A stretch of 64,000 nucleotides of DNA. It comes from a virus (lineage: Duplodnaviria; Heunggongvirae; Uroviricota; Caudoviricetes). The notes beneath the pieces are model-generated. The model was given only the letters and a program-made list of their open reading frames with translations, was not told the origin of the DNA and searched no databases. This document shows, piece after piece, positions 7,697 through 9,553 of this stretch. Made by a program: the position numbers and the translations under genes. Position 1 is the stretch's first letter; each line of letters starts with the position of its first letter. The stretch lies in the IMG/VR virus record IMGVR_UViG_2718218131_000002; one strand, 5' to 3'.

Positions 7697-7717
7697 AACC
7701 CGCTTCGGCGGGTTTTT
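7697..7717 (+). terminator. Rho-independent terminator after hok
   Basis: Hairpin CCCGC-TTCG-GCGGG followed by TTTTT. Confidence 0.6.
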
Positions 7718-7793
7718 GCATTAGTCTGGTTGACAAAAATAGAAAAATGCGAAAATATGTGGTTTACGAATTCTAAAAAAAGCGAAACTTGAA

Positions 7794-8444
7794 ATGAATG
7801 AAAATCAGTTAGCTCCTTGTTGGGAATTTCAACCTTATCTTGCTGAAAACTATGTTCGCCACTTGTTGGCGGAGATCGCTAACGTACTTGAGCAGCTGTA
7901 CTATCATAAGCACGCATTAGACAGCAACTGGTCTGAAGGTGTAAGGGCTTATGATTGGGTCAGAAATCATCTTATTCAAAATGAAGATGCAATTCCTGGC
8001 CTTGAGATGATTTCCAAGGGGTTGGACTATGTAGTTGCTTTAAATAAAGTTCCGCTACAATTTACCAAAGATTGCATTAATAACCCCAAAAAGAAACATC
8101 GTCTGCGTCGAAATAAAGTAGAGTATGAGCAACTCTCATTGTTTGGTGATGTTGAGGCTGAGCAAGATATTACATGGCGAGTCATAGCTGAGCCTTTTTT
8201 ATCCGAAGAGGGCGATGGTGAATTAGAGTCCACACTGCCTCGTTGGGAGGTAGCTCTTGTTGGATTTAATACTTATGGTGCTCAGATTAGTATAGTTTCT
8301 CATCAATCTACAGCATCGATGCCGCTTATGCCTCTTGATTATAACACACTCCCTGACGAAGCGGAGATTAATAAGGTGCCTCTTCGTCGGCGTACGAAGG
8401 ATAAAGATTTGGATGTGAGCAGTGATGGAACATCAGGTGAATAA
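7794..8444 (+). CDS. Hypothetical protein (216 aa), partner of the downstream HTH-peptidase gene
   Basis: ORF overlaps the next gene by 23 bp; no recognisable motif; acidic C-terminus. Confidence 0.5.
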   Translation: MNENQLAPCWEFQPYLAENYVRHLLAEIANVLEQLYYHKHALDSNWSEGVRAYDWVRNHLIQNEDAIPGLEMISKGLDYVVALNKVPLQFTKDCINNPKKKHRLRRNKVEYEQLSLFGDVEAEQDITWRVIAEPFLSEEGDGELESTLPRWEVALVGFNTYGAQISIVSHQSTASMPLMPLDYNTLPDEAEINKVPLRRRTKDKDLDVSSDGTSGE

Positions 8445-9528
8445 CTTCACTGAGTATCGGGGTGATAAGCTCAAACTAGCGAGAATGGCTGTTGGGCTTT
8501 CTTGTGAAGAGTTAGCCGAAAAAATTGGCAAGACAAAGCAATTCGTTAGCAAACTGGAGAAGGGGTGCAGGCCATCGGAGCAATGTCTTGAGTTAATATC
8601 TTCAGCGCTTATGATTAAGTCCAGTTTTCTTTTTACTGAACGAAAATACGCTCTGGAAAGTGATGTCTGCCATTTTCGGAGTAAGAAGTCCAGGACTCAA
8701 ACGCTGACTAATAGTGTATTGGCCAGGGCTGAGATTCTTAATATTATAATTTCTGCTGTTGAAGGTGAAATCGAATTTCCTGACGTTAACATACCGGAGC
8801 ACCCAGGGGCTGAATTACTTACTCCGAATGATATTGAGCGAGTGGCAGAAGATTGTCGCCGTGCCTGGAATTTAGGTCTTGGCCCTATATCATCAATGGT
8901 TAAATTGGCGGAGAGTTTAGGGGTAATCGTTGCGCATGTTACGGGAGTCGATGATCGTGTTGATGCTTTTACTGTTCACAATAACAGGCCTGTTATCATC
9001 AGGAACAATGTTAAAAAAAGCATATGTAGATTTCGCTCTGATTTAGGTCATGAATTAGGGCATTTAGTAATGCATGAGGGCATAACGACAGGTGATAAAC
9101 TTACGGAATCACAAGCCGATCACTTTTCGAGCGCCTTATTAGTTCCCAGGTTATCTTTCATTAAAGAATTTCCACGAATACGAGGTAAGCAATTCGACTG
9201 GAATGCTCTGGTTGAATTTAAACTTAGATGGAAAATCAGCCTTAAAATGTGTATTTATCGAGCCAGCGCATTAGGCTTATTGACCCAGGAACAGGCAAGA
9301 ACTGGCTATATGCATCTTAATTCCAGAGGGTATACGAGAGTTGAACCTGGTGATGAACTTTTGCGCCCTGAAGAACCCGGTATGCTGGCCGAGGCGATTG
9401 AAATGCTGGATGATGCAACCTGGCTAAGAATTCTTATGAAAACTGGCTTGAGCCAAGATTTAATTCGTGAGTTGTTCTCCATCAACAGACCTATTACAAA
9501 TCCAAGAAATATTTTCCAGATTGTTTGA
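8422..9528 (+). CDS. XRE-family HTH fused to ImmA/IrrE-family zinc metallopeptidase (368 aa)
   Basis: N-terminal HTH (LARMAVGLSCEELAEKIGKTKQFVSKLEKG) and HEXXH motif in SDLGHELGHLVMHEG. Confidence 0.8.
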   Translation: MMEHQVNNFTEYRGDKLKLARMAVGLSCEELAEKIGKTKQFVSKLEKGCRPSEQCLELISSALMIKSSFLFTERKYALESDVCHFRSKKSRTQTLTNSVLARAEILNIIISAVEGEIEFPDVNIPEHPGAELLTPNDIERVAEDCRRAWNLGLGPISSMVKLAESLGVIVAHVTGVDDRVDAFTVHNNRPVIIRNNVKKSICRFRSDLGHELGHLVMHEGITTGDKLTESQADHFSSALLVPRLSFIKEFPRIRGKQFDWNALVEFKLRWKISLKMCIYRASALGLLTQEQARTGYMHLNSRGYTRVEPGDELLRPEEPGMLAEAIEMLDDATWLRILMKTGLSQDLIRELFSINRPITNPRNIFQIV

Positions 9529-9531
9529 GTA

Positions 9532-9553
9532 TACCCGCTTCGGCGGGTTTTTT
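9532..9553 (+). terminator. Rho-independent terminator, a duplicate of the hok terminator hairpin
   Basis: ACCCGCTTCGGCGGGTTTTTT, identical over 20 nt to 7698-7717. Confidence 0.6.

Follow-up and report, generated by a model that had tools for sequence, protein, structure and literature searches.

What is the two-gene unit that stands beside the hok gene of an Escherichia coli prophage, with the same terminator hairpin before and after it? The unit lies at 7718-9552 of a 64,000-nucleotide (nt) stretch of the IMG/VR virus record IMGVR_UViG_2718218131_000002, here called the window. It encodes a protein of 216 amino acids (aa) followed by one of 367 aa that joins an XRE-type helix-turn-helix (HTH) to an ImmA/IrrE-type metallopeptidase. 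The original prediction for this DNA proposed a two-gene defense or addiction module and named the RmrA antitoxin of Rosmer as a parallel. That parallel proved apt, as PADLOC models identify the first protein as a putative RmrT (PDLC03929) and the second as a putative RmrA (PDLC03943). Judged by these similarities, the pair is probably a Rosmer (RmrT/RmrA) anti-phage module of the toxin-antitoxin type, added as a self-contained insert at the hokD terminator of a lambdoid prophage. Its membership in Rosmer and its toxin-antitoxin logic, taken by themselves, can be regarded as highly likely. How the toxin acts is a second question, and a conserved motif in RmrT suggests the β sliding clamp as a candidate target.

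Assignment of the pair to the Rosmer family

Both domains previously read from the second protein, an XRE HTH and an HEXXH zinc peptidase (HELGH), were recovered above the Pfam gathering scores, with HTH_3 at aa 17 to 63 (30.1 bits against a cutoff of 23) and Peptidase_M78 farther downstream (Table 1). Fourteen RmrA models of PADLOC matched the protein nearly end to end, the best being PDLC03943 (E value, 6e-105; aa 12 to 351), and the protein also matched phrog_2439. A comparison with the experimentally verified OLC-716 RmrA (E. coli; sequences from Tables S2 and S11 of Millman 2022) gave 29% identity (E value, 2e-35). Residues H209, E210, H213, H217, and E228 are invariant in nine RmrAs, including the verified OLC-716 protein. 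The NCBIfam model "spr1629 family repressor/antitoxin" matched RmrA at an E value of 1.5e-45, although the match falls short of the cutoff of that model.

A relation to CapH/CapP-type regulators had also been suggested, and it holds only as a distant analogy. The capP model of PADLOC matched the peptidase part of RmrA alone (E value, 1.6e-14), and the capH model matched the HTH (E value, 1.5e-4). CapH/CapP, ImmR/ImmA, and IrrE/DdrO share the XRE HTH and the M78 metallopeptidase with RmrA but carry them on separate proteins, and in those systems the peptidase cleaves the HTH repressor, switching on a neighboring system or element. In RmrA, by contrast, the domains are fused within 367 aa that include extra middle and C-terminal regions. 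RmrT is its sole partner, and the pair, flanked by hokD and genes of the nin region, has neither a CBASS nor any other effector operon beside it.

The first protein, RmrT, is soluble and acidic (isoelectric point, 4.9) and contains no transmembrane segment. It matched the PADLOC RmrT model PDLC03929 at an E value of 4.6e-25 over model positions 5 to 195 of 198, and it matched phrog_5786, the function of which is not known. It had been described earlier as unknown; neither Pfam nor NCBIfam gave a match, but PADLOC already contains it as RmrT. An exhaustive profile search defined a family of 69 representative clusters, nearly all of 195 to 225 aa, from Enterobacterales, Aeromonas, Vibrio, Photobacterium, Pseudomonas, Methylococcales, and other lineages. 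All 58 aligned members matched PDLC03929, and none matched Pfam. A profile search of PDB sequences with the family gave nothing meaningful, and Foldseek comparison of the RmrT model with the PDB and BFVD returned nothing at an E value of ≤0.001. The AlphaFold2 (AF2) model itself reached a predicted local distance difference test (pLDDT) score of 62 from a shallow alignment and 66.7 from a deeper one. The protein ends in a disordered tail (aa 188 to 216; window positions 8355 to 8441) with a family-wide pattern that runs from an acidic stretch through V/I-x-L and P to a basic patch (EAEINKVPLRRRTKDK in this protein) and then an acidic end. This tail could be a degron, an RmrA cleavage site, or a contact for the antitoxin.

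If the two genes form one system, homologues of the 216-aa protein should occur beside HTH-peptidase genes, a check that the original prediction had proposed. The genomic context was surveyed in seven look-ups covering E. coli, Xenorhabdus, Serratia, and four distant lineages from metagenomes or metagenome-assembled genomes, the distant toxins being about 20 to 28% identical to RmrT. The pairing proved strict: in all seven lineages, the RmrT homologue was followed by an overlapping gene (11 to 29 nt) for an HTH-Peptidase_M78 protein of 367 to 377 aa. The surroundings were otherwise unrelated and comprised three different lambdoid-prophage positions, chromosomal islands, and a site next to an integrase. 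Toxin and antitoxin identities fell in step, at 85 and 93%, 65 and 73%, 55 and 65%, and about 21 to 28 and 36 to 39%, respectively. One distant pair (L008-L011, 3163-3820) has a HigB_toxin gene and its partner directly upstream, and another (L016, 5410-6603) has an integrase upstream and a reverse-transcriptase gene downstream. The location of distant pairs beside such conflict genes is consistent with residence in defense islands.

The locus thus contains an RmrA with an XRE HTH and an M78 peptidase and an adjacent gene recognized by an RmrT model, arranged in one operon that co-occurs across genomes. The system is not new, since defense-finder models already label both genes Rosmer, and its novelty as a system is low because standard tools recognize it. 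The closest verified relative is RosmerTA of OLC-716 (Millman 2022, 10.1101/2022.05.11.491447), likewise a toxin-first two-gene operon of E. coli with an antitoxin of about 370 aa that has an N-terminal XRE HTH and an M78 zinc peptidase with HExxH. The toxins, soluble in both cases and about 215 to 240 aa long, have no Pfam domain, and each has a Q-L-x-L-type motif slightly beyond its midpoint. The PADLOC models differ, being PDLC03935/PDLC03949 for OLC-716 and PDLC03929/PDLC03943 here, and the toxins show no detectable similarity to each other (BLASTP E value, 7; hhalign probability, 0.4%). Because neither comparison was significant, we claim no homology between the two RmrT subfamilies.

Other described pairs have the same architecture. 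Vmi480/Vmi470 of Vibrio mimicus MGIVmi1 is a toxin-first operon with a toxin of about 198 aa and an HTH-zinc-peptidase antitoxin of about 362 aa, and Vmi480 is lethal in E. coli and neutralized by Vmi470 (PMC4671572). The pair WP_001179380.1/WP_000481765.1 of an E. coli E101 prophage is also toxin first and makes clpP essential (10.1101/2020.05.25.114553). By size and description, both pairs may belong with the PDLC03929 family, the model length of which is 198. Cluster look-ups for the Vmi480 and E101 toxins named members from Vibrio, Aeromonas, Photobacterium, and Pseudomonas and returned no matching accession. The E101 toxin was rejected as the same protein, as it has Thr46 where RmrT has Trp46 and the accessions differ. 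PD-λ-2, which defends E. coli against λvir (Vassallo 2022, PMC9519451), resembles the locus in having an Xre-HTH-peptidase fusion after a toxin-like gene. PD-λ-2 consists of three genes, with a HigB-like gene first and a P4-antitoxin-like gene third, and there the HTH-peptidase itself is toxic. The locus was not assigned to PD-λ-2, since only two genes lie between the terminators and neither a HigB-like protein nor such a PADLOC or Pfam match was found.

The cassette at the hok terminator

An identical 20-nt terminator had been described before and after the pair. The 20-mer ACCCGCTTCGGCGGGTTTTT indeed occurs exactly twice in the window, at 7698-7717 and 9533-9552, one base lower than implied, and both copies score as intrinsic-terminator-like hairpins. 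A search for the 16-nt core of the repeat, with up to two mismatches allowed, gave two matches in the 64-kb window; the shuffled expectation was 0.04, and none of 100 shuffles reached two matches. The unit at 7718-9552 has a GC content of 41.6%, compared with 50.2% for the whole window. The two overlapping genes reported earlier (7794-8444 and 8422-9528) are both present, and the second more likely starts at the ATG at 8425. This start is favored by RefSeq WP_000401168.1, a 367-aa protein from an identical locus, and by the homologous N termini MEHQV and MAHQV, and it leaves an overlap of 20 nt. The rmrT start at 7794 is correct because the N terminus is kept in homologues.

The unoccupied state of the site is found in phage mEp460_ev081, where hok is followed by a single copy of the terminator and then by the sequence of window position 9553 onward (junction alignment A3). 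HannyBb, PPompW phages, and others also match both flanks and lack the two genes. The alignment with the empty site of mEp460_ev081 sets the insert at 7718-9552. The original prediction placed the cassette between hok and its terminator. The empty site demonstrates the insertion, but the cassette brought a terminator of its own and was added at that of hok. In strain KL53, an 80%-identical cassette lies in a lambdoid prophage without hok and ends in its own terminator, which identifies the cassette as a self-contained moron added at the hok terminator. The terminators of variant cassettes share the stem but differ in the loop, which is TATAT in KL53 and TACG in strain CFSAN004176, where a 94%-identical variant follows hokD and different DNA lies downstream. 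The cassette terminator resembles the hok terminator, and the join falls inside that hairpin. A transposon-like target-site duplication was considered as the sole source of the 20-nt repeat and was rejected, as variant cassettes elsewhere carry a similar terminator of their own.

Among 5,426 complete E. coli genomes, 237 (about 4%) contain the cassette, at an identity of ≥99% in 224 of them, and the hok flank is also present in 232 of the 237. At the same locus in E. coli UTME-9 (NZ_CP157110.1, 2145871-2149372), the region is about 3.5 kb long rather than 2.4 kb, and an "integrase core domain-containing protein" is encoded within it, indicating that an insertion sequence (IS) element was inserted in or beside the cassette. 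Several phages have a "mobile element protein" directly after hok. The hok terminator region seems to attract insertions.

A candidate clamp-binding motif in RmrT

No mechanism of Rosmer in E. coli is published in the literature searched. In Streptococcus pneumoniae, the Rosmer toxin RipA binds DnaN, and suppressors map to the hydrophobic cleft that binds clamp-binding motifs (PMC12795458). This was the only paper in that literature that links Rosmer with the clamp, and it mentions no clamp-binding motif. The RipA/RipB pair (Spr1630/Spr1629) belongs to the Rosmer family, has an antitoxin with an XRE HTH and an ImmA-like peptidase, and differs in its Gram-positive host and in a readout of competence rather than phage defense. 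In that pair, the antitoxin cannot be dispensed with, and the toxin makes clpX essential. The DnaN cleft targeted by RipA, which we liken to RmrT from its published description, is the pocket that a QLSLF motif would occupy.

RmrT carries such a motif. Residues 113 to 117 read QLSLF, an exact match to the β-clamp-binding consensus QL[S/D]LF, more generally QxxLF (PMC12309361); the clamp motif of Hda, for comparison, is QLSLPL (PMC5397184). No other exact QL[SD]LF occurs in the 152 six-frame segments of the window. The segment reads E110-x-x-Q113-L-S-L-F117, in which E110 (alignment A4) and Q113 (alignment A5) are near-invariant, Q113 being one of 11 such columns. The motif lies in a low-confidence loop, with pLDDT values below 50 at aa 101 to 110 and 118 to 123 and with insertions and deletions just after it. 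Of 98 family members, 57 contain Q[LM]x[LMF]F or Q[LM]x[LF]x[LF] and 73 contain a relaxed form, the relative position being constant throughout; 200 shuffles gave 1.7 (maximum, 6) and 7.5 (maximum, 15), respectively. The members are related, so these counts are not independent events. The variants found in the family (QLSLF, QMDLF, QMTLF, QLSLPL, and QLSLDF) are forms seen in real clamp partners. The verified OLC-716 RmrT has QLKLDL at aa 143 to 148, and 37 of the 38 homologues of that toxin keep a QLxLxL-type motif or NLDLF there, compared with 3.1 in shuffles, under patterns that were widened after the data had been seen.

A precedent for a toxin of this kind is SocB of the type VI system SocAB of Caulobacter crescentus. 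According to PMC5422525 and PMC12795458, which cite Aakre 2013, SocB blocks replication when it binds the β-clamp cleft and is kept harmless by ClpXP, which destroys it with SocA as the adaptor. SocAB and the Rosmer pair may be alike in their working, given that dependence on ClpX or ClpP has also been reported for two Rosmer-type pairs. The systems are not homologous, and SocA is a small ClpXP adaptor rather than an HTH-metallopeptidase.

Besides the relatedness of the members counted and the late widening of the patterns, three points weigh against a role of the motif in clamp binding. AF2 draws aa 108 to 115 as a helix, with low confidence. QxxLF-like strings do not always bind the clamp, and this one could be structural or a contact for RmrA. 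Rosmer toxins also do not share one mechanism, since the RmrT of phage Kita depolarizes membranes. A transmembrane toxin like that of Kita was itself ruled out for the present RmrT, in which the highest 19-residue hydropathy average is 0.84.

With the motif and the RipA analogy on one side and these points on the other, the case that RmrT binds the clamp appears evenly balanced. That clamp binding would be the cause of toxicity is a more tentative proposal, falling a little short of that balance. Extended to the family, the suggestion would be that the unrelated-looking toxins of PDLC03929 and PDLC03935 are both β-clamp poisons, acting through QLSLF and QLxLxL/NLDLF, respectively, and normally removed by RmrA, perhaps by being handed to ClpXP as SocA does for SocB. 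We advance this tentatively as well.

The strongest alternative is that RmrT is toxic by a route other than the clamp or nucleic-acid cleavage, for example by inhibiting translation or another essential protein, with the Q-L-x-L-F segment serving as a structural element or as the site that RmrA recognizes or cleaves. The fold of RmrT, which has no confident match, leaves room for such a route, as do the heterogeneity of Rosmer toxins, the weak AF2 helix at the motif, and the need of a peptidase antitoxin for a recognition site on its toxin. However, the segment equals the clamp-binding consensus exactly, its variation across the family follows that of known clamp motifs (QLSLF, QMDLF, QLSLPL, and QLSLDF), the same kind of motif occurs in an unrelated RmrT subfamily, and the clamp cleft is the demonstrated target of a third Rosmer toxin. 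On this evidence, another route is possible but somewhat doubtful.

Control, role, and surroundings of the system

The control of the pair can be outlined from its conserved parts. About 70 bp 5' of rmrT are kept across E. coli, the 80% variant of KL53, Serratia, and Xenorhabdus, loci whose coding sequences differ by 35 to 45% at the protein level (the Serratia and Xenorhabdus proteins are 55 to 65% identical). This region contains a perfect -35 element, TTGACA, at 7730-7735, followed by two tandem units of about 30 nt within 7730-7790, TTGACAAAAATAGAAAAATGCGAAAAT and TTTACGAATTCTAAAAAAAGCGAAACT, each of which ends in (A/T)GCGAAA. From this conservation, we infer that 7726-7793 holds the promoter and an RmrA operator. 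The tandem units could represent two promoters or repeated operator sites for RmrA; the second unit in Xenorhabdus resembles the first in E. coli. An imperfect palindrome around GAATTC was examined as an operator and proved poorly conserved, and no operator is claimed there.

In the working that we propose, RmrA made from the same transcript would repress the operon by binding the conserved upstream region through its XRE HTH. As other Rosmer systems suggest, RmrT would be kept harmless by the intact M78 zinc-peptidase domain of RmrA, perhaps with the help of ClpXP; RmrA may cleave the toxin, pass it to ClpXP, or simply bind it. Phage infection, or any loss of RmrA function, would free RmrT, which would then compete with polymerases and other clamp clients for the clamp. 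Host replication would stop, as would that of phages relying on the host replisome, leading to abortive infection or growth arrest, as the conservation of the motif and the example of RipA suggest. The control features that were seen are the intact catalytic residues of RmrA, translational coupling, and the conserved upstream region. In the Rosmer literature, a ΔrmrA construct could not be transformed.

Several observations run counter to this scheme or to the assignment behind it. In the 94% copy of CFSAN004176 (L019, 4208-5310), the rmrA reading frame shifts by -1 within an A7 run (GTTAAAAAAAGC; window positions 9010-9017) just before HExxH, and the rmrT beside it is intact, with 13 substitutions and with QLSLF retained. 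Either the HTH half suffices there, e.g., by repression, or the toxin is weakened, or the frameshift is a homopolymer sequencing error. A sigma-70 promoter scan passed no -10 hexamer despite the perfect -35 element. The cassette represents a catalogued Rosmer subtype, whereas the verified E. coli Rosmer has another RmrT model, PDLC03935, and the literature searched contains no experiment on this cassette or on any PDLC03929 RmrT. No homologue is encoded by any sequenced free phage among 50,697 phage records, and a benefit to an active phage is therefore unproven.

The absence from those records also bears on what the system is for. The cassette could chiefly be an addiction module that stabilizes the prophage by postsegregational killing, a role that shares its toxin-antitoxin logic with the defense role. 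It directly adjoins hokD/sok, a classic maintenance module, and it is confined to prophages and, on plasmids, to two large ones of E. coli. The published description of Vmi480/Vmi470, which lies on a genomic island, is simply that of a toxin-antitoxin pair, and the role of RipAB is physiological rather than defensive. Set against these points, the Rosmer systems of E. coli OLC-716 and phage Kita, once cloned, confer protection against phages, enrichment in defense islands led to the discovery of the family, and distant members lie in chromosomal islands near other toxin-antitoxin or defense genes and a reverse transcriptase. We consider it unlikely that addiction is the chief role.

It is more improbable still that RmrT is a nuclease of the PD-(D/E)xK fold that degrades DNA once released, with QLSLF incidental or a tether to the fork. 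The pair is very unlikely to be a prophage switch of the ImmR/ImmA or IrrE type, in which a damage-responsive protease and its partner would control prophage genes without any toxin. Such a reading could draw on the Peptidase_M78 domain that RmrA shares with ImmA/IrrE, on its ImmR-like XRE HTH, and on the position of the locus within the early/nin region of a lambdoid prophage. Against it, the two genes travel together among unrelated contexts that include nonphage chromosomal sites, the pair has its own terminator and promoter region, the second protein matches RmrA models over the full length (E value, 6e-105) rather than by a domain alone, and homologous pairs are proven toxin-antitoxin systems.

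The features of the cassette and its hok flank are collected in Table 1. The host element is a Qin/DicF-type lambdoid prophage of E. coli. DicF, dicA, and dicC lie at its left end, and the DicF antisense RNA (175-226, minus strand) marks a prophage of the Qin type. The cassette is followed on its 3' side by a rem-like open reading frame (ORF) and then by the nin region, with DUF968, RusA, Q, and a DNA methylase. This methylase (12850-13908; PADLOC MTase_II; E value, 5e-165) is apparently an orphan and stands just 5' of three tRNA genes (13949-14021, 14032-14105, and 14122-14195), a cluster typical of the region downstream of Q in Stx-like and lambdoid prophages, beyond which lies the small RNA STnc100 (14274-14464). 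An ALIL pseudoknot, the frameshift signal of the IS3 family, at 20626-20742 (plus strand) points to the presence of an IS element within the prophage. Immediately 5' of hok comes a second accessory patch of low GC content (39% over 2700-7700). A "SMEK domain-containing protein" gene that is intact in FORC 064 is split there into ORFs 4156-4443 and 4560-5054, and the opposite strand encodes a class I S-adenosylmethionine methyltransferase (5369-6028; weak PADLOC mad2 match; E value, 1e-4) and a hydrophobic 235-aa protein without a family (6035-6742). The patch at 4156-6742 may be another defense or cargo island.

Table 1. Coordinates of the Rosmer cassette, its parts, and the adjoining hok locus in the window
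Feature	Position	Strand	Basis or remark
hokD/sok type I toxin-antitoxin locus, 5' flank outside the cassette	7304-7628	+	Rfam, RefSeq, ORF list
sok (RF01794)	7304-7478		Rfam, 114 bits
mok-like ORF	from 7416	+	
hokD coding sequence	7473-7628	+	RefSeq WP_000813254.1 at equivalent position
hok terminator hairpin	7697-7717	+	Left copy of the 20-nt direct repeat at 7698-7717
Rosmer cassette insert (moron): putative promoter region, rmrT, rmrA, own terminator	7718-9552	+	1,835 bp
Conserved 5' region, putatively regulatory	7726-7793	+	Alignment A6
rmrT	7794-8444	+	ATG start, 216 aa (ORF list)
QLSLF codons, RmrT aa 113-117	8130-8144	+	Exact match to the β-sliding-clamp-binding consensus QL[S/D]LF
Motif-bearing RmrT peptide			EYEQLSLFGDVE
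rmrA	8425-9528	+	ATG start, 367 aa; alternative GTG start at 8422
XRE-type HTH domain of RmrA	8470-8610	+	Pfam HTH_3; PDB sequence matches to SinR and 434 repressor HTH domains
Peptidase_M78 (ImmA/IrrE) domain of RmrA, aa 177-282	8950-9267	+	Pfam, 42.6 bits against a cutoff of 22
HELGH of RmrA, aa 209-213	9049-9063	+	
Terminator after rmrA	9533-9553	+	Right copy of the 20-nt repeat at 9533-9552

The locus is a clean example of how such a cassette travels, with a promoter-toxin-antitoxin-terminator unit inserted at a hairpin terminator beside hok/sok and with both empty and variant sites documented. For the toxin, docking on the clamp through QLSLF offers a concrete and cheaply testable idea of how a Rosmer toxin may act, and the conserved motif would link PDLC03929 and the verified toxin family to the RipA-DnaN finding and to the puzzling dependence on ClpXP. 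If the idea is true, it would extend the RipA-DnaN finding to prophage-borne defense in enterobacteria and provide a general mechanism for the widespread Rosmer defense, with the prediction that the phages blocked are those that need the host clamp. Rosmer toxins would then stand beside SocB as a second, much more widespread class of clamp-targeting toxins.

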